The notes: generated by a model from the sequence alone, not told the origin. Shown: positions 3,588-57,794, counted from the stretch's first letter. The stretch: 64,000 nt of DNA from Minisyncoccota bacterium (GCA_016782605.1 JADHYE010000001.1:11128-75127); one strand, 5' to 3'. Translations and numbers: made by a program.

Positions 3588-3850
3588 AGTGGTAATACTT
3601 AATTAATCGCGGCACGCGTCGCTTACGCTCCGCTAACACCGCTCTTTAGAAGACGAACGCAGTGAGGCGGGAAAAGAGATTTATCTCTTTGACCACTCTC
3701 GGTGCTCAATGAAGCTAAAGCTTCATTCCCCTTTCCGACATGGAATGGTTCTACTGAAACAAAAATGTCTGCTTTCCGCAGACAAAAATCAAGAAAAACT
3801 TAAAACTTTTCCTCGGCGGGTCTTATGGACGCCCACTGTCTGCGGATAAT
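3588..3850 (-). promoter_or_regulatory. long structured rplJ 5' leader with mutually exclusive terminator and antiterminator pairings
   Basis: On the gene strand, GTCTGCGGAAAGCAGAC followed by a U-run (plus coordinates 3761-3783) competes with pairing of CCGCAGACA (3837-3845) to TGTCTGCGG (3776-3784). An approximately 89-nt module (3639-3727) is near-identical to the rplK leader. Confidence 0.5.
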
Positions 3851-3852
3851 AC

Positions 3853-3882
3853 TAATTTATTATATATCCAGAATCTTGTCAA
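3853..3882 (-). promoter_or_regulatory. sigma70-like promoter for rplJ-rplL
   Basis: TTGACA (plus 3877-3882, minus strand), 16-17 bp spacer, then ATAAAT/TAAATT. Confidence 0.45.
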
Positions 3883-3992
3883 GTGTTTCAAAAAGAGTAA
3901 GGGATCCGGTATTAAGGGCTCCCTTATGATAAACATTATACCAGGCATCTTTTAGTGACCTAATAATACGTATTTTAGAATTTTTGTCAAGG

Positions 3993-5033
3993 TTATTTGA
4001 AATACTTTACCTTAGCCGTATTGTGTTCGTCCAAGGTTTTGCTAAAAATAGTTTCTCCTTCCCTGGTGGAAAGATAATACCAGTAATCGCTATCTTGAAG
4101 ATAAACAGCAGCGATAATGCTTTCAAGTCCAGGATTACAAATCGGACCCAAGGGAAGCCCTTTGTATTTGTAAGTATTGTAGGGAGAATCAATTTCTGTA
4201 CCAGAAGCGATCTCTGATCTCATTTCGTCAAACGTCCAGTTTTCTTTTCCTAAGATATAAGCAATGGTGGCGCAGCTGCGCAAGGGTTCGCTATTCTCAA
4301 TCTTTCCCCAGAAAATGCCAGAAACTATTTTTTTGTCCTCCAAAGTTATTACTTCCTTCTCAAGAATACTAGCCATGGTCACTATTTCAAAAATAGTTTT
4401 GCCTTGTTTCTTAATTTCCTCTCTTAATTCAGAATTCAATTTCTTATCGAAATTAATAAGCATTTTTTCAACAACGCTTTCCATGCTTTCTTTGCTGGTT
4501 TTCTCGTAAGTATCGGGAAAAAGATATCCTTCCAGACTTAAATTCTCAGGCTTATCTCTAAGAAAAGCAAAATCAGCAGAAAAATCTTTTGAAGAAGAAC
4601 CGGTTATCGGAGAACCGACCAATCCAAAAAAATCATCAGCCCCAAATAAACCTTTGCTTTCAAAATAAGAAGCGATATCCCTTAAACTCCATCCTTCAAT
4701 AATAGTGATCTTTTCCTTTATGACATTGCCGGAAAAAAGCTTGTCAGCAATCTGAGGCATATTCATTGAAGGAGACAAAATATATTCTCCTGCTTTTAAA
4801 TAAGAAGCCATTCCCACAGTCAAAACATAAACCCGGAAAACAGGAGACCACCTTATCAATCCCTGATTTTCCAAATTCAAGCCGATGTCCCTTGAACCCT
4901 GACCCTTTTCCACGCTGAAAATAACTTCTTTTTCAGAATTCTGTTCTACGGGCAAAATAACCAGCCAGGAAGCAATCAGAACAATAATAACGACAATAAT
5001 TAAAATTAAAGATTTTTTCACCCCGTATATCAA
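3993..5033 (-). CDS. mltG: endolytic murein transglycosylase MltG (YceG family)
   Basis: 346 aa; N-terminal TM segment; YceG-like sequence. The called TTG start and first four codons (MIYG) lie inside the adjacent repeat element. The true start may be the GTG spanning 5019-5021. Confidence 0.75.
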   Translation of the reverse strand: MIYGVKKSLILIIVVIIVLIASWLVILPVEQNSEKEVIFSVEKGQGSRDIGLNLENQGLIRWSPVFRVYVLTVGMASYLKAGEYILSPSMNMPQIADKLFSGNVIKEKITIIEGWSLRDIASYFESKGLFGADDFFGLVGSPITGSSSKDFSADFAFLRDKPENLSLEGYLFPDTYEKTSKESMESVVEKMLINFDKKLNSELREEIKKQGKTIFEIVTMASILEKEVITLEDKKIVSGIFWGKIENSEPLRSCATIAYILGKENWTFDEMRSEIASGTEIDSPYNTYKYKGLPLGPICNPGLESIIAAVYLQDSDYWYYLSTREGETIFSKTLDEHNTAKVKYFK

Positions 5034-5152
5034 CCTCCAAGCATTTTCAATGCGAAAATATCCTGAAGGCTGTCTTTATTTAATAATATATTCAACATAA
5101 TAACTTTGTTTGAGATTTTAATACGAAGTATTCTGGAAGTTGTATTACGGGG
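5021..5152 (+). mobile_element. Family-1 miniature inverted-repeat element, copy 1 (divergent inverted-repeat ends; flanked by TTCA direct repeats)
   Basis: ccccgtatatcaacctccaa ... ttggaagttgtattacgggg; shared core gcattttcaatgcgaaaa...; fills the pcm-mltG spacer. Confidence 0.8.
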
Positions 5153-5153
5153 T

Positions 5154-5789
5154 TCATTTTTTCAATAAAGGAACGAAAATAAACCCTGGATGTTCTTTTT
5201 CTTCAAAATCAGTTTCGTTCTTTTTAATTAAAAGCCAGATTGAAGAATCAACCGGAGCAACAATCCTGCCTCCGATTTTCAGCTGCTTTTTCCAAGAATC
5301 GGGAATATTAACAGCACTAGCAGATGCTAAAATCTTGTCAAACCCTTCGACAAACTCAGGGTGAGAGGAGATATTGGGATAACCGTTGTTTCCGTCAAGA
5401 CAGAAAAACTGAACAATCCCCTTTTTAACGAAATTATATTTTGAAACGTTTTTCTCGCCAAAGTCCTTCAATTCCTGGATTATATCAAGGGAAATAACCT
5501 TTCCTTTTTTACCGACAATTTCAGCTAACAAAGCGCTGGTCCAGCCAGAGCCTGAACCAACATCCAAAACCTTATCCCCTTCATGCAAATCCAGCAATTC
5601 CATCATAAAAGCAACAACCAAAGGCTGAGAAATGGTCTGGCCGAATCCTATAGGCAAAGCCTCGTTGATCTCTGCTAAATTCTTTGAGTCTTCCGGCAAA
5701 AAATCGCTTCTCTTTATTTTTTTAAAAGCTTCTATCACTTTCGGCGTTTTCAGCCAGTTATCTTTAATTAGCTCTTCAATAAGCGGCAT
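5154..5789 (-). CDS. pcm: protein-L-isoaspartate O-methyltransferase
   Basis: 211 aa; SAM-binding motif LDVGSGSGW. Confidence 0.85.
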   Translation of the reverse strand: MPLIEELIKDNWLKTPKVIEAFKKIKRSDFLPEDSKNLAEINEALPIGFGQTISQPLVVAFMMELLDLHEGDKVLDVGSGSGWTSALLAEIVGKKGKVISLDIIQELKDFGEKNVSKYNFVKKGIVQFFCLDGNNGYPNISSHPEFVEGFDKILASASAVNIPDSWKKQLKIGGRIVAPVDSSIWLLIKKNETDFEEKEHPGFIFVPLLKK

Positions 5790-5790
5790 A

Positions 5791-5860
5791 CTAGGTAGTA
5801 GAAATTCGACAAATTTATTTTTCTTTGCTGCCAGGCAGCAGTCGAATTTTCACTACCTGG
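5791..5860 (+). mobile_element. Family-2 miniature inverted-repeat element, copy A (flanked by CATA repeats)
   Basis: ctaggtagtagaaattcgac ... gtcgaattttcactacctgg inverted-repeat ends; its left end abuts the pcm ATG and the element overlaps the last approximately 15 codons and the stop of def. Confidence 0.75.
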
Positions 5861-6312
5861 CATAGTTTTTGTGGTAAACTCATTTTATCAATAAATAGTA
5901 TTCCGTCCAAGTGGTCAATCTCGTGCTGGAAAACCCTGGCTGACAATCCATCAACTTTCATTTTGATTTTTTCCCCCTGCAGATTAAGAAACTCCAGTTC
6001 CACTTCCTTAGCTCTTTTAATCTTTAAAAACAAACCAGGAAAACTCAAGCATCCCTCTTCCATGACTTCTGTCTTTCTGCTTTTCCGCACGATCTTTGGA
6101 TTTATGAAAACTTGCGACTTTCCTTCAAAAAAAGCAGCGATTATGCTTTTTGATTCGCCGATCTGAGAAGCAGCCAATCCAATGCCGTCTTTTTCCATCA
6201 TTATCTTTTTCATTTCTTCGGCCAATATCTTCACCTCCTCGGTTATCTCCTTGATCGCAGAAGATTTCTTTCTCAGTATTGGATTTGGATATTCTAATAT
6301 TTGCTTACTCAT
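5815..6312 (-). CDS. def: peptide deformylase
   Basis: 165 aa; motifs EGCLSFPG and HEIDHLDG; the C-terminal approximately 15 codons are encoded by the Family-2 element. Confidence 0.9.
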   Translation of the reverse strand: MSKQILEYPNPILRKKSSAIKEITEEVKILAEEMKKIMMEKDGIGLAASQIGESKSIIAAFFEGKSQVFINPKIVRKSRKTEVMEEGCLSFPGLFLKIKRAKEVELEFLNLQGEKIKMKVDGLSARVFQHEIDHLDGILFIDKMSLPQKLCQVVKIRLLPGSKEK

Positions 6313-10167: not shown

Positions 10168-10500
10168 TTACATATTTCGTCTTGCGCAAAAAGCGTACTG
10201 CAAGAAATAATCATCAAGGTCTTTAAGCGAACTATTGTATTCTTTGCCACCGGTAACAGCATCGCAAAATAATTCTTTTACTCTGGCAATTTCCCTAATT
10301 CTTCCACTCAATCTTGGATCTATAAGAGTCAAATCAAACAACTCCAAAGCCCTGGCAACTGCTCCCCAAAAAGTATCTTCATCTTCCCCCTGCCATTTTC
10401 TAGCCCTGCTAACCTCACTACCGATATTAGCCATTTGCTCAATTAATGAAAGCTTGAACCATCTCCCCGATGAAAGGTCTTTGTGCAAGGTTTTTGTCAT
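10168..10500 (-). CDS. hypothetical protein (downstream member of an overlapping two-gene cassette)
   Basis: 110 aa; 4-bp ATGA overlap with the upstream ORF; no family recognised. Confidence 0.4.
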   Translation of the reverse strand: MTKTLHKDLSSGRWFKLSLIEQMANIGSEVSRARKWQGEDEDTFWGAVARALELFDLTLIDPRLSGRIREIARVKELFCDAVTGGKEYNSSLKDLDDYFLQYAFCARRNM

Positions 10501-10847
10501 TGTGAAATTAATTTCTCTACGATATTTCTAATTTTATTCTGGATTTCTGGATTATCAACACTACGAGAACGATTGCCGAATGACGGTTTCAGATTAATAA
10601 CCGAATCGAATTCTATCATTTCTTCTTTATTTTTTCCCGGATATATATTTATCCCCCATGTGCTTTCGCGCCTTGATGTTTCCTTTTCCATTAATATTGC
10701 TTCTTCGTCAGCATGCATTTCTCCGCCCACGGCCATTATCCCCTGATCAATATCAACAACCGCTTTTATCAAATCGCCAAACTGCTCTTTTGCCATGTCA
10801 ATAAGCTCTTTTTTACTTATTGGATCTTTAATAATTTTTATCTCCAT
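10497..10847 (-). CDS. hypothetical protein (upstream member of the overlapping two-gene cassette)
   Basis: The probable start is the ATG at 10845-10847 (MEIKIIKD...). The track's longer TTG-initiated version runs into the upstream repeat. Confidence 0.4.
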   Translation of the reverse strand: MEIKIIKDPISKKELIDMAKEQFGDLIKAVVDIDQGIMAVGGEMHADEEAILMEKETSRRESTWGINIYPGKNKEEMIEFDSVINLKPSFGNRSRSVDNPEIQNKIRNIVEKLISQ

Positions 10848-10915
10848 ATTGCTTATTTGCTTGCCGAGCTGCAGCAAGATAGAAGAAGAGATTTATCTCT
10901 TCGCTTCTTTGTGAA
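10848..10915 (+). repeat. Family-3 hairpin-pair element (GCTGCAGC palindrome plus GAAGAAGAGAT-TT-ATCTCTTCGC hairpin) abutting the start codon
   Basis: same two-hairpin layout as the 15138-15270 and 56365-56433 copies. Confidence 0.55.
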
Positions 10916-11021
10916 AACTAACTAAAAAGCACTTATATGAATATTATATCTAAAAAATAGATTATTACAAGCAATTTTTCTGTATTAATGTTTATTTAAT
11001 AAACACTAAAAAACCGTCTTC

Positions 11022-11046
11022 TTGAGAAAACGGCCGAAATCGGCTC
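11022..11046 (-). terminator. terminator-like hairpin with U-run after the small ORF 11106..11285
   Basis: GCCGA-TTT-CGGC stem followed by CGTTTTCTC on the minus strand. Confidence 0.35.
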
Positions 11047-11105
11047 CCCTGGTTGGACGATGCCTGTCCTGAGTCGCATCGAAGGGTTAGAACCTGGTTA
11101 AGAAC

Positions 11106-11285
11106 TGCTAATTGGTCTTTTTAATTTTTTTTCTCATGGCTAATAAACCAATAGTAATAAATAATACTCCTGTCAATATCCATAATAGTGATGCAACTCC
11201 CGACATAACAGCTGCTCCAATAACAATCCAAATAACTCCGATAGCTATGTGAATTTGAAAAGGAAATTCTCTTTTTTGTTTTTCC
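11106..11285 (-). CDS. small (59 aa) two-TM membrane protein, missed by the ORF track
   Basis: ATG..TAG ORF translating MEKQKREFPFQIHIAIGVIWIVIGAAVMSGVASLLWILTGVLFITIGLLAMRKKIKKTN; hydrophobic. Confidence 0.35.
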
Positions 11286-11380
11286 ATATGTTTAAAAATT
11301 AATTATTTATTCCTTTTTCAATTCTACCAAAAAACCGCCCAAAACAATAGACGGAATAGCTACATCTCCATTGTTCGATT

Positions 11381-11920
11381 CTATTTTGTAAAAGGTAAAT
11401 TTGTTATTATTCTTGTAATCGCTGGGTGTTGGCTACAAAGTCTATATTGAAGTAATTTTATCACTATAAAAAAATCTTCTATTTCTGAAGTTAGTTTTTC
11501 TGGCCCAGTAAATATTTCTTTCGCCTCTTCAAGTGTGTGTTTAAAATACTCGCCAAGTTTTTCAGTATTAACCTTATTCTTTAAATAAGCTATGATTTTT
11601 TTAAACTCTCCATCATCGAGCCAAATCCCTTTACATTTGTTACAAAAATCTACTCTAACATCAGAACCTCCATAATGAACCTCATATAAATTCACTTTAC
11701 ACGTGGGGCAGATTTTTGAGGAATGAGAAGGTTGAAATTTCTCACTGTCTTTCCAAAGGTCAATATCTAACCATTTTAAAAATTGGTCTTCTTCATCTTT
11801 TGCTTTTCTTAACTCATCCTGATTAAACCAAATTCCTTTACATTGACTACACCTCTCTATTTGGTTTTTATTAAAAGTGATTTTTTCTAACGTTTCTTGT
11901 TTACAATTTGGACAATTCAT
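11381..11920 (-). CDS. zinc-ribbon protein with two CxxC..CxxCxGxW(F/L)(N/D) units (TFIIB-type zinc-ribbon fold)
   Basis: 179 aa; CPNCKQ..CSQCKGIWFNQDE and CPTCKV..CNKCKGIWLDDGE. Confidence 0.5.
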   Translation of the reverse strand: MNCPNCKQETLEKITFNKNQIERCSQCKGIWFNQDELRKAKDEEDQFLKWLDIDLWKDSEKFQPSHSSKICPTCKVNLYEVHYGGSDVRVDFCNKCKGIWLDDGEFKKIIAYLKNKVNTEKLGEYFKHTLEEAKEIFTGPEKLTSEIEDFFIVIKLLQYRLCSQHPAITRIITNLPFTK

Positions 11921-11960
11921 ATAATTATATTTTTAAAAAAATAATCTTTTAATCAGTATA

Positions 11961-11988
11961 CCAAAAAACCGCCACCGCCGAAAGGCGG
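11961..11988 (-). terminator. intrinsic terminator (CCGCC-TTTC-GGCGG followed by a U-run)
   Basis: minus strand reads ccgcctttcggcggtggcggttttttgg. Confidence 0.6.
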
Positions 11989-12029
11989 ATTGGCGATTTT
12001 TATCGTGGCTTGCCCTGAGCGAGCGAAGC

Positions 12030-12066
12030 GAGTCGAATGGGCTCCGGAGGTAGGATTCGAACCTCT
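12030..12066 (-). other. tRNA-like fragment (T-arm-like GGTTCGAATCC plus CTCCGGAGCCCA) downstream of rpmG; not a complete tRNA
   Basis: no D-arm or anticodon arm could be folded; followed by 50 nt and then the terminator at 11961-11988. Confidence 0.3.
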
Positions 12067-12111
12067 ATTATTTTATGTTTATTATTTCCTCAAGCTCAAG
12101 ACAAAAAGCGC

Positions 12112-12276
12112 CTAACGCTTCCCTTCTTTGTGCAAGGTATGCTTTCTGCACCATTTGCAGAATTTCTTAAAACCCAACTTCTTCTCAACAGCTTCCTTTG
12201 ATTTCTTAGTAAAGTAATTAACCCTTTTGCATTCCTGGCATTGAAGTTTAGTAAATGGTCTTTTTTTAGCTGCCAT
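12112..12276 (-). CDS. rpmG: 50S ribosomal protein L33, missed by the ORF track (54 aa)
   Basis: translates MAAKKRPFTKLQCQECKRVNYFTKKSKEAVEKKLGFKKFCKWCRKHTLHKEGKR; lies upstream of the secE-nusG region as in many bacteria. Confidence 0.75.
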   Translation of the reverse strand: MAAKKRPFTKLQCQECKRVNYFTKKSKEAVEKKLGFKKFCKWCRKHTLHKEGKR

Positions 12277-12348
12277 ATGTTTTTATTGTTATTATTTGAT
12301 AAGGCGATGAAGATAAATCTTCATCTTCTCTCTTCTTTGCGACTCGAG

Positions 12349-12420
12349 AGCCTGAGGCCGGGATTGAACCGGCGGCCTCGTCTTTACCAAAGACGTGCTC
12401 TACCAACTGAGCTACCCAGG
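12349..12420 (-). tRNA. tRNA-Thr-like (GGT-type) with an atypical anticodon loop
   Basis: revcomp GCCTGGGTAGCTCAGTTGGTAGAGCACGTCTTGGTAAAGACGAGGCCGCCGGTTCAATCCCGGCCTCAGGCT. The acceptor, D, T and variable arms fold normally. The anticodon arm CGTCT-TGGTAA-AGACG gives a 6-nt loop, or CGTC-TTGGTAAA-GACG an 8-nt loop, instead of the canonical 7. Confidence 0.6.
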
Positions 12421-12432
12421 CAAAAAATAACA

Positions 12433-12517
12433 GTGGGTGTGGTCGGAGTCGAACCGACGGGATCTAATAAGACAGCGGTTTTACAGACCGTTCCCGCCCC
12501 CTACGGGACTACACACC
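12433..12517 (-). tRNA. tRNA-Tyr (anticodon GTA), type II with long variable arm; CCA not encoded
   Basis: revcomp GGGTGTGTAGTCCCGTAGGGGGCGGGAACGGTCTGTAAAACCGCTGTCTTATTAGATCCCGTCGGTTCGACTCCGACCACACCCA. Confidence 0.8.
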
Positions 12518-12690
12518 CTTTTCAGATAATAATCTTTTTGCTCTTTTTAAGTGCTTTGTATTGCCAAATCCGATTTCGTTTATATACCGATGTAAATCTA
12601 ATTAATATATAATTCTATCAATTCATCCTGTTTTTTCTGTTCTTCTTCAATTGTCCATCGTCGAGCCATTATTTAATTTTACTATAAAAA

Positions 12691-13347
12691 TTATAATTTT
12701 CCAATTGATTTGCCGTATTTTCTCCTCCAGGCTTCTATCATTTTGTGATTACCCGAAACCAAAACTTTAGGTACCCGCCATTTCTGGAAAACTTCAGGCC
12801 TGGTGTATTGCGGATATTCCATAAATCCCTTTTCCTTAGTTATCCTTTCTTTCAATAAAGCAGGTTTGCCCAAAACTCCAGGTATTAACCTTGTTATGGT
12901 TTCCATAACTATCATTCCAGGCAACTCCCCTCCCATCAAGTCGTAGTCGCCAACTGACAACTCCATATCAGCAATGTGTTTGGCTACTCTTTCATCAACC
13001 CCTTCATACCGGCCGCAAATCATAATTATCTGGTTTAATTTTGACAACTGATAAGCTGTTTTCTGATTGAATTTCTTTCCCCGGGGAGTAAATAATATGA
13101 CTTTTGTTTTGCCTTTGCCTTTTATCTTTCTAACAGCTTTATATATGGACTCTACCTTCAAAACCATACCCAGCCCTCCGCCAAAAGGCCTATCATCAAC
13201 TGTTTTGCGCTGATCTTTGGCCCAGTCCCTCAAATTATGGACATTTATCTTAATCAATTTCTTTTCCCTGGCTTTCTTAATAAAAGACTCCTTCAGATAA
13301 GAATCGAATATTTGGGGAAAGATTGTAATAATATCAAATTTAAGCAT
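12691..13347 (-). CDS. trmD: tRNA (guanine37-N1)-methyltransferase
   Basis: 218 aa; MLKFDIITIFPQ...; SPOUT-type TrmD motifs. Confidence 0.9.
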   Translation of the reverse strand: MLKFDIITIFPQIFDSYLKESFIKKAREKKLIKINVHNLRDWAKDQRKTVDDRPFGGGLGMVLKVESIYKAVRKIKGKGKTKVILFTPRGKKFNQKTAYQLSKLNQIIMICGRYEGVDERVAKHIADMELSVGDYDLMGGELPGMIVMETITRLIPGVLGKPALLKERITKEKGFMEYPQYTRPEVFQKWRVPKVLVSGNHKMIEAWRRKYGKSIGKL

Positions 13348-13348
13348 A

Positions 13349-13480
13349 CCCTGTATATCAACATCCAGGCATTTTCAATGCGAAAACACCCTGAAGATTG
13401 TCTTTATTTAATAATATATTTAACATAATAACTTTGTTTGAGATTTTAATACGAAGTATTCTGGATGTTGTATTACGGGG
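13349..13480 (+). mobile_element. Family-1 element, copy 2 (flanked by CATA repeats)
   Basis: ccctgtatatcaacatccag ... ctggatgttgtattacgggg; abuts the trmD ATG. Confidence 0.85.
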
Positions 13481-13544
13481 CATAAAAACAAAAACGGCCT
13501 ATTTTGAACAATAGCACCGTTTTTGCACTCTGTAAACTTAGAGT

Positions 13545-13856
13545 TTACAGTTTTAAATCTTCAATAGATTCAGACTTCCTTTCTCTCGTTGGCCTGCCGC
13601 CTTCTGGCTCTTCGATCTTCAAATTCACTCTTGCGTGATTTTTAAGACCGACAATTCTTACCAGATTTCTGATAGATCTGGCGGTAGAACCTTCTTTGCC
13701 GATAATCTGGCCCATGTCTTCAGGGTTCACTTTCAAAGAAAGCAGAACTCCCATCTCGTCAACCGTACGGTCAACTTTAACATCTCCAGGATTGTCGACT
13801 AAAGCTTTAATGAGATATTCAAGGAATTCTTTATCGTTTCCTTTTGTATCAGCCAT
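13545..13856 (-). CDS. KH-domain RNA-binding protein (YlqC/UPF0109-like)
   Basis: 103 aa; GKEGSTARSIRNLV KH motif; sits between rpsP and trmD. Confidence 0.8.
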   Translation of the reverse strand: MADTKGNDKEFLEYLIKALVDNPGDVKVDRTVDEMGVLLSLKVNPEDMGQIIGKEGSTARSIRNLVRIVGLKNHARVNLKIEEPEGGRPTRERKSESIEDLKL

Positions 13857-13947
13857 AGTTCTTTCTGAGTTTTAGTAATTACTGATATTTATTCGTTTCT
13901 AGTAGCGCCGACCTTTCAATAAATCTGAAATGTAGCTACTGATTAGT

Positions 13948-13975
13948 ATTATATTCATTTGAACCATTTTGTCAA
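13948..13975 (-). promoter_or_regulatory. near-consensus sigma70 promoter (TTGACA-N16-TATAAT) between rpsP and the KH gene
   Basis: minus strand reads TTGACAaaatggttcaaatgaaTATAAT. Confidence 0.5.
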
Positions 13976-13981
13976 GAAAAC

Positions 13982-14440
13982 TCATTTTTCAACTTCTTTT
14001 TTCTCTTTAACCTTCTCTTCTTTTTTCTCTTCGGCAGGTTCAGTTTTAATTTCTTCAACAGCCGCTTCAGCCGGCGCTACAACTTCAGCTTGTTTAGGCG
14101 AAGCCTCAACAGGTTTCTCAACAGGTTTCTCTTCGTGCCTCTCCGGCACATCCGCCGGAGAGGCGGACTTTTTTGATTTTTTATGCAAAGCAATCTTTTT
14201 CCCTTCAATGATTTTCTGAGAAATCAGCATATTATGGATGGTTTCAGAAGGATGGGCGCCGACTGAAATCCAGTATTTTATCCTTTCTGCCTTTAATTTC
14301 TTCTCTTTTGTCAAAGGATTATAAAAACCGACTTCTTCAATATATCTTCCTGAAGTCGAAGATTTCTCTTTTTCGACCACCACTATCTTGAATGATGGCT
14401 GATTCTTTTTTCCTGTTCTTAATAATCTAATAACTAACAT
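13982..14440 (-). CDS. rpsP: 30S ribosomal protein S16 with Lys/Glu-rich C-terminal extension
   Basis: N-terminus MLVIRLLRTGKKNQPSFKIVVV typical of S16. Confidence 0.85.
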   Translation of the reverse strand: MLVIRLLRTGKKNQPSFKIVVVEKEKSSTSGRYIEEVGFYNPLTKEKKLKAERIKYWISVGAHPSETIHNMLISQKIIEGKKIALHKKSKKSASPADVPERHEEKPVEKPVEASPKQAEVVAPAEAAVEEIKTEPAEEKKEEKVKEKKEVEK

Positions 14441-14447
14441 ATATATA

Positions 14448-15137: not shown

Positions 15138-15270
15138 ATACCGAGTCCGCCCAAGGCGGGCGAAGGTGAAGAAGAGGTTTACCTCTTCGACTTACTTTTC
15201 TAATACCGAGTCCGCCCAAGGCGGGCGAAGGTGAAGAAGAGGTTTACCTCTTCGACTTACTTTTCTAATT
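15138..15270 (+). repeat. Family-3 hairpin-pair element present as a perfect 2 x 65-bp tandem duplication filling the nusB-rnc spacer
   Basis: The unit ccgagtccgcccaaggcgggcgaaggtgaagaagaggtttacctcttcgacttacttttctaata occurs twice with 100% identity (15141-15205 and 15206-15270). It starts right after the rnc ATG, and the last four codons and stop of nusB lie in the second unit. Confidence 0.85.
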
Positions 15271-15676: not shown

Positions 15677-15693
15677 AATAAAATAACAATTAA

Positions 15694-15978: not shown

Positions 15979-15999
15979 ATCAATAAATATATTAACACA

Positions 16000-16626: not shown

Positions 16627-16656
16627 AATATACTTAGATAATACTAACACAAAGTC

Positions 16657-19905: not shown

Positions 19906-19976
19906 TATATCTCTTCTCCGCCTTCATTCCGTTACCGCGGAACTTGGCAATAGAAGAAATCGTTGAATCATAATAT

Positions 19977-41789: not shown

Positions 41790-41790
41790 A

Positions 41791-47112: not shown

Positions 47113-47113
47113 A

Positions 47114-47245
47114 CCCTGTATATCAACATCCAGGCATTTTCAATGCGAAAACACCCTGAAGATTGTCTTTATTTAATAATATATTTAACATAATAACTTT
47201 GTTTGAGATTTTAATACGAAGTATTCTGGATGTTGTATCACGGGG
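47114..47245 (+). mobile_element. Family-1 element, copy 5 (flanked by CATA)
   Basis: abuts the rseP ATG and fills the frr-rseP spacer. Confidence 0.85.
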
Positions 47246-47249
47246 CATA

Positions 47250-47810
47250 TTATTCTGATATTTCTTTTTTCTTATTCTCTCCCATTTCTTCTATCTTTTT
47301 ATTGTAATCGTCAACCAACTCCTGAAGCTCGTCTTTAGCCCGGAACTTGTCATCCTCCCTGATTTCTCCCTGTTTTGTTTTATCCTGGATTTCACTCCAA
47401 ACCTCTTCCCTCCACTTTCTAATAGTCCTTCTTGACTGTTCTTCTTTTTCCGCAATGGTCCTGGTTAAATTCTTCCTGTATTCTTCGTTCAAAGGCGGCA
47501 AATTAATCCTGACTGCATCCTTGTCAACAATTGGATTAGCGCCGATTCCCGTCTTTTCCAAAGCTGAAACAATGCCTTCGATATAAGACTTATCCCAAGG
47601 CTGAATTAAAATCTGCTTTGCCTCAGGTGTAGAAATGGCAGCCAATTGTTTTAAAGGAAACTTCTGGCCGAAACAGTCAACAACAACATCCTCCACCAAA
47701 GAAGGCGTTGCCCTGCTGGTACGAATCTTATTCATTTCCTTTTCTAAAAAGCCGATTACCTTGTCTAATTCCGGTTTAATATTTTGAATGATTGTTTTGT
47801 AGCTATCCAT
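47250..47810 (-). CDS. frr: ribosome recycling factor
   Basis: 186 aa RRF-like. Confidence 0.9.
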   Translation of the reverse strand: MDSYKTIIQNIKPELDKVIGFLEKEMNKIRTSRATPSLVEDVVVDCFGQKFPLKQLAAISTPEAKQILIQPWDKSYIEGIVSALEKTGIGANPIVDKDAVRINLPPLNEEYRKNLTRTIAEKEEQSRRTIRKWREEVWSEIQDKTKQGEIREDDKFRAKDELQELVDDYNKKIEEMGENKKKEISE

Positions 47811-47811
47811 A

Positions 47812-47943
47812 CCCTGTGTATCAACATCCAGGCATTTTCAATGCGAAAACATCCTGAAGATTGTTTTTATTTAATAATATATTTAACATAATAACTTTGT
47901 TTGAGATTTTAATACGAAGTATTCTGGATGTTGTATTACGGGG
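47812..47943 (+). mobile_element. Family-1 element, copy 6 (flanked by CATA)
   Basis: abuts the frr ATG and fills the holB-frr spacer. Confidence 0.85.
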
Positions 47944-47951
47944 CATAAAAA

Positions 47952-48842
47952 TTACATTTCCATTACCAGTCTTTCCAGAGCCAATCTGGCGTTAACATTG
48001 GTCTGGGCAAGCAGTAATTTTGTCGTTTGAATTAGATTAATAATATTTTTTAATTTATCAGCTGAATAACTTTTAAAGCTAATATCGGAATTGCCAGAAG
48101 AAAAACGGGCAAGCAGAATGTCCCTGAAATAATTAAGCCAGACATCCAGGGTTTTTTGCGTTTCTATCGGCTCTTCGCTCAAATCTTTTACGTACTGGAA
48201 ACGGGAATAAAGCATTGATTTTGAAAGATTTTTAACTTCTTCTATTTTTTTCTTGAACGCTCCAACCGCTTTTTTATCGGAAACGAAATCCATAACCAGT
48301 CCCGGTTTCCCAGAAGAAATGGAAGAAAGCTCTTCTGCCTCTTTTTTCAAAAACCCTTTGTCTAATAGATAGCGATTGATTTCTTCTTCTTTGACCGGAT
48401 TAAACTTTACAACCTGAACGCGGGAAAGAATGGTCGGTAAAAGATAATGTATTTTGTCGCTGATTAAGATTAAAACGCTGTCACCCCTCGGCTCTTCCAA
48501 TGTTTTTAAAAGCGCTGTCTGTGCCTCCTGATTCATTAAGTGGGCATTATCTATAACAGCTGCTTTCACCGAATTAAAAGAGCTTTTAAGCGAAAATCTG
48601 CGAATCAAATCCCTTATCTGGGAAATCTTTATCTCTTTTTCCTCAGGCGTAACAAGAACAAAATCTGGATGATTGCCAAAATCCTTACTGACTTTATCGC
48701 CAAAAAGCAGCGAAACCCATTGTAAAGCCAAAGTCCTTTTCCCTAATTTTTCGGAACCGGCAAATAAATAAGCGTGGGAAAAAGTCTTAGTCTCAGCCAA
48801 TTTTTTCAAAAGATTCCATTGTTTTTGGTGTCCGACCAACAT
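47952..48842 (-). CDS. holB: DNA polymerase III delta-prime subunit
   Basis: 296 aa; AAA+ clamp-loader N-terminus HAYLFAGSEKLGKRTLA. Confidence 0.65.
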   Translation of the reverse strand: MLVGHQKQWNLLKKLAETKTFSHAYLFAGSEKLGKRTLALQWVSLLFGDKVSKDFGNHPDFVLVTPEEKEIKISQIRDLIRRFSLKSSFNSVKAAVIDNAHLMNQEAQTALLKTLEEPRGDSVLILISDKIHYLLPTILSRVQVVKFNPVKEEEINRYLLDKGFLKKEAEELSSISSGKPGLVMDFVSDKKAVGAFKKKIEEVKNLSKSMLYSRFQYVKDLSEEPIETQKTLDVWLNYFRDILLARFSSGNSDISFKSYSADKLKNIINLIQTTKLLLAQTNVNARLALERLVMEM

Positions 48843-51134: not shown

Positions 51135-51893
51135 TCACAGAGCAGATAACTTCTCCTCAACTCCACTGATGTGGAATTTAGCACTCAGCCCAGTCTCCTT
51201 CTGAGACCTCTCATATAACTTTATGGCCGTTCTGTACTCCGTCTTTGCTCTTCGTGTCTCTCCGATTTCCCTAAGGGCATCGGCCTTGTTCTGTTTGGCA
51301 TGCCCCGCTGTTCGGAGATCTCCCTTTGCCAAAGCAGTCTTATGCACCTTTTCGCACACTTGAACACTCTCAGCGAACCTTCCCTCACGACGAAGGGTAA
51401 TGGCCTTGGTATTCCAAACCGATGGCTCTTCGGAGAATGATGCAACAGCCTTATTGATAACTGACCAAGTCTCTGGCTTTTTATCTAAAAGCCAAAGTGC
51501 CAAGGGCAGCCCATTCAAACAGGAAATTTTCCTGCTTTTGTTTCTGGTATTAAGAGCTTCCCGAAACGAAAGCTCTGCTAGTTTAAGGTTGCCCTTCCTG
51601 GTTGCGACCGGGCCTTTGATTGAGATATAATAGTAATCCCATCCCAATATCCGGTTAGCCTCGGCAATCTCTTCTTTGCCGGTTAAACTTACTTTGTTCT
51701 TCTTGATCAAGGCAACTGACTCATCATATTTACCATCTGCATACAATTTCTTAGCCAGTTTCAAGATCTTTTGGGCCGGCATCGCTTTGGCAATTTCCTG
51801 CTCTTTTTTAAAGAACAGATAAACCATTGCATTGCAACCGGTAACAAAGCCCAATAGCAAGATAAATCCTGCTGAAAGAAAAAACTCTGCCAT
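51135..51893 (-). CDS. TPR-repeat protein with N-terminal TM helix
   Basis: 252 aa; tetratricopeptide-like repeats. Confidence 0.5.
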   Translation of the reverse strand: MAEFFLSAGFILLLGFVTGCNAMVYLFFKKEQEIAKAMPAQKILKLAKKLYADGKYDESVALIKKNKVSLTGKEEIAEANRILGWDYYYISIKGPVATRKGNLKLAELSFREALNTRNKSRKISCLNGLPLALWLLDKKPETWSVINKAVASFSEEPSVWNTKAITLRREGRFAESVQVCEKVHKTALAKGDLRTAGHAKQNKADALREIGETRRAKTEYRTAIKLYERSQKETGLSAKFHISGVEEKLSAL

Positions 51894-52192
51894 CTCGGCA
51901 CCTCCTTTCTTTATTTCTTATCTTTCGTTAATATATTAATCAAATCCTTACCTTGCAGGATATAATATGAATTCAACCTCCATCTCTCTTCTCTGCTCCT
52001 CACCATATATATCAACCCATATTGGACATAAAATGAACCACCGCTCCCCTCCTTCTACAATCACATATATTACCACGCTCTTTCCAAAATGTCAACCCCA
52101 TTAGAAGTCCGCCTTGCCGGAGGCATGGCGACAGCCACCAAGGGGGCAGCTTACTTCTAACGGAGTCAAGATTGAGGTATAATAATCATATG

Positions 52193-52264
52193 CCAGGTAG
52201 TGAAAATTCAACCACTGCCGCGGCAGTGAAAAAAATAATAATTTGTCGAATTTCTACTACCTAG
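52193..52264 (-). mobile_element. Family-2 element, copy C, inverted relative to copies A and B and abutting a plus-strand gene (flanked by TATG)
   Basis: ccaggtagtgaaaattcaac cactgccgcggcagtg ... tcgaatttctactacctag; the ATG at 52266. Confidence 0.75.
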
Positions 52265-52265
52265 T

Positions 52266-53570
52266 ATGACCAAAAAGACAAAAACAATACTGTTTTTAGC
52301 CTGCTTACTTGCATTCATCCTGTTAGCTCCCTCAATAGTCCTGTACTCCCAAGGATACAGAATTGATTTTAATCCTCCAGAAGGCGGAAAAATGATTACC
52401 CAAACCGGAGGCCTTTTTTTGAAAGTCACGCCCAAACAAACAGATATTTATATTGACGGCAAACCTAAAAAAAGAACTGATTTTCTATTCGGTTCTGTTT
52501 TAATTGAAAACCTCATTCCTGGAAAGTACAAAGTAGAAATCAAAAAATTAACCAGCCAGGAAGAATACTATCCCTGGGAGAAAAACCTGGAAATACGGGA
52601 AAAACAGGTAACTGAAGCCAAGAACGTTGTCCTTTTCCCGAAAAACGTTAATTTCAACGTCTTATCAACCAACGTAGAACAGCTTTGGCTTTCTCTGGAC
52701 CAAAAGAAACTAATCTTAAAGGAAAATGAAAAAGCCAGCTGGTCCTTAAAGCTTTACGACCCGGAAAAGAATATAAAAAGCTATTTAATAAGCGACGAGG
52801 ATTTCTTCACGAAAGAACCCCAATTAATCAATCTGAAATTCTCGGGAGACTCAAGAAGTATTAATCTGGAAGTCAGCATAAAAGAAGCAATACAATCTTT
52901 TTCTCTGCAACTTGACCAAGCAAAACCAACTTTAAATAAAAAAACAGCAGCCACAACGACAACTGGAAACGCTGCTATCTCGCAACAAGCAGGCAATGAT
53001 ATATATTATCTGGACAGTTTCGGCTATCTTTTCAGGAATAAAGAAAAGCTGGCAGAAACTCCCTTTCAAACAAAACAAGAAACAGAATATGCTTTAGATA
53101 TTTTCAACGGCAACATATTCTTAAAAGAAAACGACAAACTGTACAAATTCAATTACAATCTGAAAACATTTGAACATTTCTTTGACGGAATCAATATCTT
53201 AAAGCTTTCTCCGGACAATAAAAAACTGCTTTACGCTTCAAACAATGAAATGTGGATTCTTTTCCTGGAAGACAAAATCGACCAGCCGCAGAAAAAATCA
53301 GGAGAGAAAATCTTTTTAATCCGCTTATCAGACCAAATCACAAGCATCTCCTGGATAAACGACAATTACCTGGCTTTTCTTGCCGGCAATACCGTTAAAA
53401 TCATTGAAATAGACGACAGGGACAGAATAAACGTTATAGACATCTTTGAAACAAAAAACCTCCCTCAAGAAGGAAGCATTAATGAAATGTCCTGGAACAG
53501 GTTTGACAATAAAATCTATCTCTTGGACGAAAACGGCTATTTATATAGCTCTAACGTCCTGCTCCCGTAA
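52266..53570 (+). CDS. hypothetical secreted or anchored protein (N-terminal TM, PEGA-like segment, beta-rich C-terminal region)
   Basis: 434 aa; no family recognised. Confidence 0.4.
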   Translation: MTKKTKTILFLACLLAFILLAPSIVLYSQGYRIDFNPPEGGKMITQTGGLFLKVTPKQTDIYIDGKPKKRTDFLFGSVLIENLIPGKYKVEIKKLTSQEEYYPWEKNLEIREKQVTEAKNVVLFPKNVNFNVLSTNVEQLWLSLDQKKLILKENEKASWSLKLYDPEKNIKSYLISDEDFFTKEPQLINLKFSGDSRSINLEVSIKEAIQSFSLQLDQAKPTLNKKTAATTTTGNAAISQQAGNDIYYLDSFGYLFRNKEKLAETPFQTKQETEYALDIFNGNIFLKENDKLYKFNYNLKTFEHFFDGINILKLSPDNKKLLYASNNEMWILFLEDKIDQPQKKSGEKIFLIRLSDQITSISWINDNYLAFLAGNTVKIIEIDDRDRINVIDIFETKNLPQEGSINEMSWNRFDNKIYLLDENGYLYSSNVLLP

Positions 53571-54269: not shown

Positions 54270-54739
54270 TGAGGAGCACGACGAGCGCGCTTCAATCCGA
54301 ACTTCTTTCTTTCCCTCATCCTCGGGTCTCTTTTCAAAAAACCAGCTTTTTTCAACTGTTTCCTCAATTCTGGATCGAATAAAACTAAAGCGCGAGTTAA
54401 ACCGTGCCTGACAGCTTCAGCCTGGGAAGTCGTCCCTCCCCCTTTAACTTTTACTGAAACCTGAAATTTGTCAGAATAATCAGTCAAAATCAAAGGAGAA
54501 AAAATAATACGCTGAAGGTATTTTGTCGGAAAATAATTTTCAAAAGTCCTTGTATTTATTAAAAAGGTCTTTTCTTTTTGAACAGAAATTCTCACCCTGG
54601 CTACAGCTGTCTTTCTCCTGCCTATGCCCTCAAAATACCTGGCTACTTTAGGTTTAACTGTTACTTTGGCAGTTTTTTTAGCTGGAGCTTTTTTGACTTT
54701 CTTTACTGTTTCTTTTTTTGTTTTTTTAGCCTTTGGCAT
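54254..54739 (-). CDS. rpsI: 30S ribosomal protein S9 with lysine-rich N-terminal extension
   Basis: C-terminal GGGTTSQAEAVRHGL..KKFGLKRARRAPQWQKR; start taken at MPKAKK; the track's MDVDIRG extension is derived from the repeat element. Confidence 0.9.
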   Translation of the reverse strand: MPKAKKTKKETVKKVKKAPAKKTAKVTVKPKVARYFEGIGRRKTAVARVRISVQKEKTFLINTRTFENYFPTKYLQRIIFSPLILTDYSDKFQVSVKVKGGGTTSQAEAVRHGLTRALVLFDPELRKQLKKAGFLKRDPRMRERKKFGLKRARRAPQWQKR

Positions 54740-54740
54740 A

Positions 54741-54872
54741 CCCCGTATATCAACATCCAAGCATTTTCAATGCGAAAACACTCTGAAGGCTGTTTTTATT
54801 TAATAATATATTCAACATAATAACTTTGTTTGATATTTTAATACGAAGTATTCTGGATGTTGTATTACAGGG
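54741..54872 (+). mobile_element. Family-1 element, copy 7 (flanked by CATA; variant right end ..ttacaggg)
   Basis: abuts the rpsI ATG; its last 8 bp supply the final codon and TAA stop of rplM. Confidence 0.85.
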
Positions 54873-55215
54873 CATATTTTAATCTTTTAATCATTTTTGC
54901 TCTTAATTTATTCTTGGGCAGCATGCCAAAAACCGCTTTCCTCAAAACTTCTTCCGGATTCTTCTCAAATAACTTCTCCAAAGTTATCTCCTTCAAGCTT
55001 CCCAGATATCCAGAATGACGGTAGTATTTCTTCTGTTTGGCTTTTTTGCCGGTGAATTTCAACTTATCAACGTTTTGGACAATAACAACATCGCCGATAT
55101 CTTTGTACGGCGCAAAGTCTGCTTTCTGTTTCCCCCTCAAAAGCAAAGCTATTTCAACAGCCAGTCTGCCTAAAACCTTATCAGTAGCGTCTATTTTGTG
55201 GGTTTTGCGTTCCAT
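54865..55215 (-). CDS. rplM: 50S ribosomal protein L13
   Basis: 116 aa L13-like. Confidence 0.85.
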   Translation of the reverse strand: MERKTHKIDATDKVLGRLAVEIALLLRGKQKADFAPYKDIGDVVIVQNVDKLKFTGKKAKQKKYYRHSGYLGSLKEITLEKLFEKNPEEVLRKAVFGMLPKNKLRAKMIKRLKYAL

Positions 55216-56364: not shown

Positions 56365-56433
56365 ATAGCGAGTCCCGCAACAACGGGACGAAGGTTAAGA
56401 AGAGGATGAATTCCTCTTCGATTTATTTTGAGT
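56365..56433 (+). repeat. Family-3 hairpin-pair element filling the rpsD-rpoA spacer
   Basis: atagcgagtcccgcaacaacgggacgaaggttaagaagaggatgaattcctcttcgatttattttgag; starts right after the rpoA ATG and contains the rpsD stop. Confidence 0.7.
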
Positions 56434-57052
56434 AAAACTCGAAAATTGCGGAGAGTTCTGCCGGTGGGACAGCCTCTTCTAAATTTGGTGAATCGATGAC
56501 CTTTGCCTCCAGCTTCTCAGCGTCTAATTTGAGCCAAGACGGAGGATTATATTTTTTTAAAGTAGATGATAATTTCTGGAAAATTGTTTTTTTTAAAGAA
56601 TTGGGGTTAACGCTTATTTTGTCCCCTTTCTTAACCAGATAGCTGGAAATATTAATCGGCCTGTCGTTAACCATAAGATGGCTGTGGGAAACCATTTGTC
56701 TGGCAGCAAATTTGGAAGGAGCGAAACCTAATCTGAAAACTACATTGTCCAAGCGGCTCTCCAAAGTTTTAATTAAAGCAGCGCCGGCATCCGTCACCTT
56801 TCCCCTGGCCTTTAAAATATCTTTGACGTAGTTCCTGAATTGCTTCTCTTCCAAATTATACCAGTTCTTTAATTTTTGTTTTTCCCTTAATTCTTTACCG
56901 TATTCAGAAAGCGATTTCACTCTTTTTTTAGCTTTTGGCCCTGGCGGATAAGGTTTTTTGATCATTGGGCATTTCTGCGATGAGCACCTTTCGCCTCTCA
57001 AAAAAAGCTTAATTCCTGCACGACGGCAAATTTTGCATTTAGAAACATTCAT
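56423..57052 (-). CDS. rpsD: 30S ribosomal protein S4
   Basis: 209 aa; N-terminal zinc ribbon CKICRR..C..C; S4 domain. Confidence 0.9.
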   Translation of the reverse strand: MNVSKCKICRRAGIKLFLRGERCSSQKCPMIKKPYPPGPKAKKRVKSLSEYGKELREKQKLKNWYNLEEKQFRNYVKDILKARGKVTDAGAALIKTLESRLDNVVFRLGFAPSKFAARQMVSHSHLMVNDRPINISSYLVKKGDKISVNPNSLKKTIFQKLSSTLKKYNPPSWLKLDAEKLEAKVIDSPNLEEAVPPAELSAIFEFYSK

Positions 57053-57053
57053 A

Positions 57054-57185
57054 CCCTGTATATCAACATCCAGGCATTTTCAATGCGAAAATATCCTGAA
57101 GGCTGTCTTTATTTAATAATATATTTAACATAATAACTTTGTTTGATATTTTAATACGAAGTATTCTGGATGTTGTATTACAAGG
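57054..57185 (+). mobile_element. Family-1 element, copy 8 (flanked by CATA; right end ..ttacaagg)
   Basis: abuts the rpsD ATG and fills the rpsK-rpsD spacer. Confidence 0.85.
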
Positions 57186-57192
57186 CATAAGT

Positions 57193-57642
57193 TTATACCC
57201 TTCTTACTTTTGGCTTACGACAGCCGTTATGCGGAACTGGAGTCATATCCTTAATTGAAACTATTTCCAAACCCCTGGCAGCCAATGACCTAATAGCTGA
57301 ATCTCTGCCAGAACCTATCCCCTTTACGAAAATCTCTATCTTTTCAATCCCTATTTTCTCGGCAATCTGGACGATTGCTTCAGCTACCTTGGAAGCAGCA
57401 AAAGGCGTTGCTTTTTTTGCTCCTTTGAAACCGATATTGCCAGCGCTAGTCCAGCCCAAAACATTACCCTTTGGATCTGTCAAAGTAAGGATGGTGTTGT
57501 TATAAGAAGAAGCAATGTAAATTCTGCCCTCTTGTATCCTTTTAAGGGTTTCTTTGGCCTGCTCTTTCACTTTCGTTTCCATGGCTTCACCTTCTTTCAA
57601 AATCTCTTCTTCAGTTTGTCGTATAACACGTTTTTTACCCAT
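57193..57642 (-). CDS. rpsK: 30S ribosomal protein S11
   Basis: 149 aa S11-like. Confidence 0.9.
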   Translation of the reverse strand: MGKKRVIRQTEEEILKEGEAMETKVKEQAKETLKRIQEGRIYIASSYNNTILTLTDPKGNVLGWTSAGNIGFKGAKKATPFAASKVAEAIVQIAEKIGIEKIEIFVKGIGSGRDSAIRSLAARGLEIVSIKDMTPVPHNGCRKPKVRRV

Positions 57643-57794
57643 AATGGTAATACCTAATTAGGTCGCGGCACGTCCCACTTGCAGCGGGACTAACACCGCT
57701 CTTTAAAAACCCTCGGTTTTTAATATTTTCCTACACGGAAGAACCAAAGGGTTCTTCCGACCCATCTCCGATATGGGACGTTATTACTGAATTA
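57643..57794 (-). promoter_or_regulatory. rpsK leader sharing hairpin modules with the rplK and rplJ leaders
   Basis: 57721-57790 matches 33820-33870; 57691-57705 (taacaccgctcttta) matches the rplJ leader; the approximately 30 nt before the ATG are shared. Confidence 0.5.

Follow-up and report, generated by a model that had tools for sequence, protein, structure and literature searches.

Why should three ribosomal-protein genes of a Minisyncoccota bacterium, rplJ, rplK and rpsK, be preceded by near-identical blocks of DNA that run up to their start codons? The genes lie in a sequence of 64,000 nucleotides (nt) (GCA_016782605.1 JADHYE010000001.1:11128-75127), which as a whole is called the window below, and an earlier note on it had interpreted the region before each gene as an operon leader built from shared modules. 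We concluded, at a probability of about 65%, that the three supposed leaders are copies of one mobile, non-autonomous, modular and hairpin-rich repeat of the BOX/REP kind, here called F2, which is co-transcribed as 5' untranslated region (UTR) and spreads within and among genomes of tiny, uncultured bacteria of the Candidate Phyla Radiation (CPR, Patescibacteria), landing before the start codons of many unrelated genes.

The window, with a G+C content of ~39% and most of its genes on the minus strand, is part of a 77-kb metagenome contig (ENA ERZ24794679 NODE_753). Its L10 and L11 have identical counterparts at NCBI under the label 'MAG: Candidatus Pacebacteria bacterium' (MAG, metagenome-assembled genome), and their next-closest relatives carry the labels Nealsonbacteria or Parcubacteria; the host therefore belongs to the CPR. 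A Shine-Dalgarno (SD) sequence is missing upstream of most genes of the window. A clear exception is the gene of a TPR-repeat protein (51135-51893), with AAAGGAGGTG upstream at 51894-51910. The loci and contigs of relatives or of the same population that were compared with the window are numbered L001-L048; L003, L004 and L020 are loci of one related MAG.

The blocks before rplJ, rplK and rpsK

The shared blocks themselves are real. Self-BLAST of the window aligned 3639-3727, before rplJ, with 33651-33739, before rplK, at 98.9% identity over 89 nt (E=4e-41), and 33807-33879, before rplK, with 57726-57797, before rpsK, at 87.7% over 73 nt (E=3e-16). A pre-ATG block of ~25 nt, ending at the ATG, was common to all three genes (3583-3618 with 33571-33607, and 33564-33602 with 57631-57669), the rplJ copy having a 1-nt deletion relative to the other two. 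An independent repeat search of the window recovered the same block families (D4, D9, D6, D16), and a 24-nt pattern of the pre-ATG block had 0 matches in 100 shuffles of the window. All the features described earlier were found in place on the minus (coding) strand. The hairpins reported for the 89-nt block were likewise present, except that the first carries one mismatch in the rplK copy (AAAAAGATTTATCTCTTT).

When the blocks were extended to whole elements, with helices P1 to P5 and a 3' tail, and scored with the covariance model R1, which was built from eight F2 copies, the following features were obtained.

57644-57792, minus strand: F2 copy 1, R1 score 152 bits, a complete short form that fills the rpsM-rpsK spacer
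57193-57642, minus strand: rpsK (S11; Pfam PF00411, E=9e-40), downstream of copy 1
33576-33879, minus strand: F2 copy 2, R1 score 96 bits, a long form
33153-33575, minus strand: rplK (L11; Pfam L11_N and L11), downstream of copy 2
3588-3754, minus strand: F2 copy 3, R1 score 69 bits
3075-3587, minus strand: rplJ (L10; Pfam PF00466, E=6.7e-18), downstream of copy 3
3639-3727, minus strand: 89-nt block shared with 33651-33739, corresponding to the distal part of a multibranch insertion in P4 and the 3' strand of P4

The element begins with P1 (CCCAU-AUCGGAG-AKGGG), which is weak and poorly supported and has a GGAG-rich loop, followed by P2 (UCGGRAGAACC-loop-GGUUCUYCCG), the linker GUGUAGGAAAA and an optional P3. 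P4 (YUAGAAACC-GNG-GGUUUCUA) may hold a multibranch insertion of ~150 nt, and AAGAGCG lies between it and P5 (GCGGU...GCCGC), whose distal part is variable and whose smallest form is GC-GAA-GC. The element closes with a near-invariant tail of ~20 nt, GA(C)YUAAUUARGUAUUACCACU (GUAUUACCACU), which abuts an AUG or position +1 of a tRNA. The conserved linkers are purine-rich, and optional domains sit in P4, in P5 or between P2 and P4.

Copy 1 consists of a weak P1, P2, the linker, a simple P4, a P5 with the hairpin UCCCGCUGCAAGUGGGA and a tail ending in GGUAUUACCAU, after which U-AUG follows. Copy 2 has P1, P2, the linker, P3, a P4 with the ~150-nt multibranch insertion, a long variant of P5 and a tail ending at the ATG; it folds at -103 kcal/mol (z=-6.2). 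In copy 3 a P1-like hairpin (AUUCC-AUGUCGGAAAGG-GGAAU) is followed by a multibranch module that replaces P2-P4, the default P5 (CGGAGCGUAAGCGACGCG) and again a tail ending at the ATG. The folding z-scores of the three copies were -3.9, -2.2 and -6.2. A diverged homologue of the whole multibranch module was found in L015 and part of the module in L008.

Helices P2, P4 and P5 covary. In a 17-copy alignment fitted to the R1 model 92.8% of the cells were paired and 16 pairs had changed on both sides; 0 of 500 shuffles reached these values, slid controls were 37-54% paired, and an independent 8-copy MAFFT alignment agreed. Within P2-P5, 17 G-U pairs stood against 4 A-C mismatches. From this excess we concluded that the sense strand folds, as RNA or as sense single-stranded DNA.

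Could the blocks nevertheless be ribosomal-protein leaders of the L10, L1 or S4 type? Two matches to such leaders were found in the window, and neither coincides with the blocks.

3751-3863, minus strand: canonical L10 leader (RF00557-like), 40.9 bits against a gathering threshold of 44, full model length, E=2.5e-5 in a local search
58152-58238, minus strand: weak match to Alpha_RBS (S4-binding; RF00140) at the rpsM start, 27.3 bits against a gathering threshold of 38, E=0.029

The L10 leader match is near threshold, keeps the conserved UACCG.AGACAG...CCGAGG core and has a terminator-like hairpin at 3766-3784; it is a separate unit that stands upstream of F2 copy 3. Orthologous matches of 39-44 bits were obtained at rplJ in L021, L022 and L038, and in L020 the leader was recognisable by eye. 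The L10 leader was thus present in 5/5 lineages (the window, L020, L021, L022, L038) and F2 in 3/5. The Alpha_RBS match hints that an S4 leader, if the window has one, lies at the start of rpsM rather than at rpsK, where the supposed operon leader makes up the entire rpsM-rpsK spacer and is operon-internal. An L1-type operon leader before rplK did not hold up either: rplA does not follow rplK, and genes for dCMP deaminase (32298-33149, minus strand) and thymidylate synthase (thyA; 31470-32291, minus strand), with related genes after them, occupy the place where it would be expected. No L1 gene adjoins the L11 gene in the window or in the relatives examined.

At gathering thresholds Rfam matched only tRNAs in the window, and at relaxed thresholds no leader model matched before rplK or at the rpsK block. 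No family covered the shared blocks even at E<5, so that Rfam leader hits, which could have undone the earlier interpretation, were absent; nor did self-cleaving ribozymes, riboswitches or T-boxes match over the three F2 copies at E<5. The same element was also found before nusG, serS, ftsE, a GspE-like ATPase gene, hypothetical genes and two tRNAs, which removes its tie to ribosomal-protein operons. With at least 14 different downstream genes or tRNAs and patchy occupancy, F2 does not behave as a cis-regulatory leader. It resembles the RF00557 and RF00140 leaders as a structured RNA directly upstream of ribosomal-protein genes, and differs from them in being dispensable and not operon-specific, in matching no leader model, and in a similarity to the 23S GTPase centre no better than that of shuffled controls. 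The shared blocks are therefore not operon-specific autoregulatory leaders.

Occupied and empty sites of F2

At rpsK the insertion could be read directly from two alleles. In L042, from another sample of the same population and with flanks 99.9% identical, the sequence is ...CCTACATAATA-C-TATGGGT, where the window has ...CCTACATAATA-[149 nt]-TATGGGT. This filled/empty pair, by which the boundaries of F2 copy 1 were set, shows that the rpsK copy is a clean insertion replacing one base, without duplication or inverted repeats. In the related MAG (L003) the rpsM-rpsK spacer is 4 nt and F2 is missing.

The rplJ and rplK sites are also variable. At rplJ, the L10-leader terminator of L020 is followed by AATATAT-ATG without F2, while L021, the closest relative (L10 91% identical), carries a canonical full-length F2 with the same 5' end as the window copy; F2 was present in L038 (L10 72% identical) and absent from L022 (75%). 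The nusG-rplK spacer measures only 4-7 nt in L045, L046 and L047 (L11 85-94% identical) and contains no F2, and in a fourth relative (L048) it holds a different structured sequence. At the site upstream of a hypothetical gene (58604-59905), F2 was found in L003 and a repeat of another family, family 3 (see below), in the window. Blocks that come and go in this way, the rpsK copy missing in a same-species strain and the rplJ and rplK copies in closer relatives, behave like mobile repeats. [quoted passage not shown]

Some neighbours of the rplK site were recorded in passing. Between the nusG stop and F2 copy 2 the window has a unique, strongly folding segment of 152 nt (33880-34031, minus strand; -56.7 kcal/mol) where relatives have 4-7 nt; it shares a CGGCAAC...GTTGCCTC closing helix with the otherwise unrelated-looking 141-nt nusG-rplK spacer of L048, and may represent a further element family. 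In L047, rplK is followed (10426-20423) by phage-like genes (YopX, HNH, helicase and many small open reading frames (ORFs)) and by another, partial gene for L11 (95 aa); this block looks like a prophage or island integrated at the rplK 3' end. The gyrB of a Nealsonbacteria relative (L046 2540-5761) has an intein (1073 aa; Pfam Intein_splicing).

The internal make-up of the copies explains how the blocks came to be shared. The rplJ copies of the window and of L021 have the 5' end (GTAGAACCATYCCATGTCGGAAAGGGG), P5 and tail in common, and the window has the multibranch module where L021 has P2-P3-P4. As the middle of the window copy is 98.9% identical to its own rplK copy and its ends are like those of L021, we concluded that copies swap modules, by recombination or gene conversion. 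The L003 copy combines an rpsK-type body with an rplJ-type P5. It is because of this exchange of internal modules that rplJ and rplK share one block, and rplK and rpsK another. That module sharing across operons is atypical, and that mobile hairpin modules could account for it, had been rightly foreseen; for a single regulator, the other explanation offered at the time, we found no support.

F2 was sought in public collections by a scan for the pre-ATG block and then with R1. About 20 distinct copies were found in CPR contigs, at the following sites outside the window.

L005: before ftsE
L007 and L008: before nusG
L008: before rplK
L010: before serS, a minimal form of 69 nt
L011: before rpsN
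L015: before the gene of a GspE-like (secretion) ATPase
L016: before rpmA, full element
L004: before rpmA, tail only
L018: before the gene of an uncharacterised protein
L021 and L038: before rplJ
L003: before a hypothetical gene
L022: before tRNA-Tyr
L004: before tRNA-Lys
L017 and L045: reversed, between genes

Two metagenome hits and 14 tail hits in viral contigs were due to chance, the viral ones falling inside phage genes. Sense copies numbered ~19 against 2 reversed ones, and the reversed copies were as well conserved as the sense copies. Every sense copy preceding a protein gene has TATG as its 3' flank, and TGGG, TAGC and TATT were found elsewhere; T at -1 also occurs in 59% of other genes. 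The 5' flanks are only A/T-rich, and no constant 4-5-nt target was found there. Where a sense copy precedes a protein gene, 1 nt (rarely 3-4 nt) separates the tail from the AUG. In L015 (2778-2813), before the GspE-like gene, a tandem duplication covers the last 16 nt of the tail together with the start codon (AGGTATTACCACTATG), giving a short out-of-frame ORF. A degenerate tail-like TAATTAAGAATTACAAATATG stands before the ATG at 23292 (23266-23294, plus strand), either an old remnant or chance.

F2 lands in the short gap that separates a start codon from the gene, leader or terminator upstream of it. Its adjacency to start codons is partly forced, because native spacers are only 4-8 nt long. 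Nearly always in sense orientation and directly 5' of T-ATG, it is transcribed within a 5' UTR or operon spacer, and the insertion would swap translational coupling or the native pre-start sequence for the accessible tail of F2. The predicted accessibility of the tail was 0.44-0.69, native genes giving 0.50 +/- 0.13. Essential genes may tolerate the insertion because the tail supplies an accessible start region. As to the route, F2 has traits of the IS200/IS605 or REP type, namely no inverted repeats, no duplication, subterminal hairpins and strand-specific folding. Hairpins that differ between the strands, in an element that has neither inverted repeats nor a duplication, suggest a single-strand route like that of IS200/IS605 or REP elements, or recombination.

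Several observations weigh against F2 as simply a mobile repeat. F2 showed no terminal inverted repeats: all that recurs is GTAATA(C), a motif of 6-7 nt close to the two ends in some copies, and its 5' ends vary. The same-species allele pair, in which 149 nt replace 1 nt, has no target-site duplication. The ~500 kb of CPR loci (Pfam-annotated genes, incomplete genomes) showed no transposase or other gene for mobilisation. Ribosomal-protein genes make up 5 of ~14 independent sites, a rough binomial p~1e-3 with an assumed background of ~55 ribosomal-protein genes in 900. Across genera the tail of sense copies is almost invariant while the helices covary, and upstream of rpmA the tail alone was kept in L004 where L016 has the full element. 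In two cases the tail end abuts tRNA position +1 exactly: in L022 (1036-1144) the tail ends at 1141 and tRNA-Tyr starts at 1142, and in L004 (890-987) the tail ends at 985 and tRNA-Lys starts at 986. None of the DNA-level targeting models that we formulated explains these two junctions. Finally, the window and L008 agree at ~93% over the final ~100 nt of their rplK copies, where the third codon positions of rplK are only 54% identical; with closer relatives lacking the element, this indicates recent spread of one subtype, or strong constraint. Taken together these points suggest that resident copies are under selection, or that the RNA has a role other than selfish spread.

Other repeats at start codons and known systems

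F2 is not alone in its position. At least three further repeat families in the window (1, 3 and 4) also abut start codons.

5017-5187, 13345-13515, 36869-37022, 41787-41957, 47110-47280, 47808-47978, 54737-54907 and 57050-57220, minus strand: family 1, a MITE of ~135 nt in eight copies
5787-5864 (minus strand), 52177-52276 (plus strand) and 59895-59995 (minus strand): family 3, a ~85-nt MITE; also L039 6661-6741, and a part in L017 4147-4348
15133-15262 (two 65-nt units in tandem) and 56365-56425, minus strand: family 4, immediately preceding rnc (RNase III) and rpoA

The family 1 copies, 92-99% identical to each other, have 20-nt terminal inverted repeats (CCCCGTAATACAACATCCAG / CTGGATGTTGATATACGGGG) with TATG on both sides and precede yceG, trmD, gyrB, a hypothetical gene, rseP, frr, rpsI and rpsD. 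As empty sites in L003 reveal, insertion duplicated TATG and with it the start codon; in the loci fetched from the related MAG (L003, L004, L020) no copy of the family was found. Family 3, of the form TATG|CCAGGTAGTGAAAATTCGAC...GTCGAATTTCTACTACCTGG|TATG, has the same architecture and TATG duplication, precedes a PCMT methyltransferase gene, two hypothetical genes and a sortase gene, and follows the gene in its orientation. In both families a long stem buries the real AUG, the predicted unpaired probability being 0.01-0.07. In 7 of the 8 family 1 copies an upstream open reading frame (uORF) of 41-46 codons is kept, which starts at the duplicated ATG and ends with a UGA that precedes the AUG of the gene by 10 nt; the divergent gyrB copy, whose indels are in frame, is among these. 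The uORF, annotated as a 41-aa gene in one assembly (L042 1955-2080), may be a translational relay that opens the stem. Family 4 consists of the hairpin GAAGAGGTAAACCTCTTC, a variable G+C hairpin and ACTCGSTAT-ATG, and related pieces occur in L010, L016 and L019.

A small hairpin, (A/G)AAGAGATAAATCTCTT(C/T), was seen at 364-386, 10883-10905 and 63878-63901 and also inside the 89-nt block (3670-3693), and may be a sub-module common to several families. Same-population contigs (L002, L039, L040, L043) end at, inside or beside copies of family 1 or F2, and from these breaks we concluded that the repeats fragment short-read assemblies.

How does F2 compare with repeats already known? The pneumococcal BOX elements (boxA-boxB(n)-boxC) are likewise short, non-coding, multi-copy and composed of modules that vary in number and kind; like F2 they fold strongly, are intergenic, are co-transcribed with their neighbours and do not encode a mobilising enzyme. 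F2 has no sequence relationship to BOX, its 3' tail is fixed against a start codon or tRNA position +1, and its helices covary across genera. BOX elements are not known to stand at a fixed distance from start codons. With REP/BIME, REPIN-RAYT and the palindrome elements of IS200/IS605, F2 shares hairpins in place of terminal inverted repeats, the lack of target duplication, strand asymmetry, a mosaic make-up, long persistence and patchy occupancy. In contrast to them, no RAYT or Y1 transposase was found in the DNA examined, nor a constant 4-5-nt target at the 5' flank; moreover F2 is a multi-helix unit of 70-300 nt, whereas REP is a palindrome of 20-40 nt or a doublet of these.

The Correia elements of Neisseria and the ERIC elements, which are MITEs, closely resemble families 1 and 3 in their 20-nt terminal inverted repeats, duplicated target, long RNA stem and insertion beside genes. 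Correia elements duplicate TA and are not known to be start-codon-specific. F2 is intergenic and co-transcribed like them, but without terminal inverted repeats or target duplication. The kind of object is thus known (BOX, REP/BIME, MITE-like), and F2 is newly distinguished by the absence of inverted repeats and duplication, the covarying body, the tail that abuts an AUG or tRNA, and its CPR hosts. A search of the literature on CPR intergenic repeats, leaders and leaderless mRNAs gave nothing relevant, and no description of F2 was found there or in Rfam.

Competing explanations and meaning

The alternative that survives best, although we consider it unlikely, is that F2 is a domesticated expression cassette, whose RNA would be kept because it helps the downstream gene in an SD-poor genome, mobility being only the means of its spread. 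Like known 5' stabilisers, the stable 5' hairpins and the GGAG-rich loop of P1 would stand in the way of decay from 5' to 3'; they would also shield the start region from the sequence upstream, and the invariant unstructured tail would serve as a standard ribosome landing pad. Stabilisers of this sort are the stable ompA-type hairpins close to the 5' end and the cryIIIA STAB-SD of B. thuringiensis, an SD-like, GGAG-rich sequence that stands far upstream of the start. F2 may be likened to such mRNA stabilisers for its 5' hairpins and GGAG-rich sequence far upstream, and differs from them as a multi-copy mobile unit. The near-invariant tail beside covarying helices, the solitary tail at rpmA in L004, the strong sense bias, the missing SD at most genes of the window and the enrichment of sites at genes of the translation apparatus are all consistent with a cassette; so is the accessibility of the tail, which equals that of native starts whereas families 1 and 3 bury the AUG. 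The retention of RNase J, RNase III and PNPase as core RNases in CPR bacteria (PMC12641178) is a further point in its favour. On the other hand, strains or close relatives manage without F2 at each of the three sites, reversed copies are equally conserved, and the C-rich end of the tail (UUACCACU) is unlike the A/U-rich native upstream regions.

Rather less probable than a cassette is a broader reading in which F2, more than selfish DNA, is a portable RNA module of a new class that sets where the downstream RNA begins, with its tail marking a cleavage or ribosome-loading point at the AUG or tRNA position +1. If true, such a module would give operon-internal genes of SD-poor CPR bacteria a leaderless-like initiation, as a bacterial counterpart of the tRNA punctuation of mitochondria, and its logic would extend to families 1 and 3, which duplicate the start codon, family 1 having in addition its putative relay uORF that stops 10 nt short of the real AUG.

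The narrower form, in which cleavage at the tail end by the RNA itself or by a host RNase frees a downstream RNA with a defined 5' end (a near-leaderless or leaderless mRNA, or a tRNA) in the manner of mitochondrial tRNA punctuation, we regard as improbable. The distance of 1 nt (rarely 3-4) from tail to AUG in all sense protein-gene copies, the exact tRNA junctions in L022 and L004 and the rarity of SD sequences would fit it. The same holds for conserved helices with invariant single-stranded junctions, as in catalytic or protein-bound RNAs, and for a TATAAT box 6 nt before the ATG at the hypothetical-gene site, which is compatible with native leaderless transcripts. However, Rfam gave no ribozyme match, and small self-cleaving ribozymes pair on both sides of the scissile bond, whereas the sequences downstream of F2 are unrelated. 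Genome compaction, with native spacers of 4-8 nt, and a preference for insertion before T-ATG (T at -1 in 59% of other genes) can explain most of the adjacency, reversed copies exist, and the tRNA cases are only two.

A shared regulon, in which one trans-acting protein or RNA binds the tail or junctions and co-regulates translation genes including tRNAs, seems a shade less probable still. It would account for the invariance of the single-stranded tail, for the over-representation of ribosomal-protein, nusG, serS and tRNA genes among the sites, and for the conservation of the family across genera. Against it, F2 comes and goes at one and the same gene from strain to strain and from species to species, stands also before ftsE, a secretion ATPase gene and hypothetical genes and in reverse, and leaves rplJ its own L10 leader; a candidate for the regulator was not identified. 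That the similarity arose by chance, or in assembly by chimeric joining at repeats, can practically be dismissed, in spite of the frequent contig breaks at repeats in the same population (L039, L040, L043, L002), in view of the BLAST E-values of 4e-41 and 3e-16, identical junctions in independent assemblies of other samples (L001, L039, L041) and homologous elements in JGI, ENA and NCBI contigs of other organisms.

Further candidates for what F2 might be were tried and rejected. A mimic of the 23S GTPase-associated centre was suggested by eye, UUAGAAAC...CUAAAGAGCGGUGUUAGC resembling E. coli 1065-1100, and its local alignment scores fell within the shuffled distribution. A T-box-like tail (AAUUAGG..UACC) has no Rfam T-box match and carries ACCA, not UGGN. 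If the main function of the tail were that of a promoter from which transcription starts at the ATG, a TAnnnT hexamer would be needed at a usable distance; none lies there, and the upstream helices show sense G-U pairs. No complementarity of P5 to the target gene, as for a guide, was apparent by eye (no formal test). A tRNA-like closing helix with 3' ACCA finds its 5' partner GUAAUA in two window copies only and is not conserved, and the AUG of a small ORF inside F2 (AUGGGUCGG...) is missing in many copies. General leaderless transcription was set aside after an informal look by eye, without a scan, in which -10-like boxes near starts had no consistent spacing. As for pairing with other RNAs, GUAUUACC may be complementary to the 530 loop of 16S, an 8-mer match being weak evidence, and GUAUUACCAC may be a candidate for base-pairing with the 16S or RNase P RNA of the lineage.

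The mobile, non-autonomous repeat thus stays the preferred explanation of the blocks before rplJ, rplK and rpsK. It removes a false lead: the blocks are not a novel kind of leader shared by ribosomal-protein genes, and beside the rplJ copy the canonical L10 leader is intact. In practice, repeats of this kind break metagenome assemblies and yield spurious small ORFs. They also raise the questions of how initiation proceeds after a structured insert of 150-300 nt with few SD sequences, how an element without inverted repeats is mobilised, and how its ends come to lie exactly at AUG or tRNA position +1. That streamlined CPR genomes harbour several structured repeat families inserting precisely at the start codons of essential genes is apparently undescribed in the literature searched, and F2, one of these families, is conserved in different genera, covaries as an RNA does and has an invariant tail before the start.

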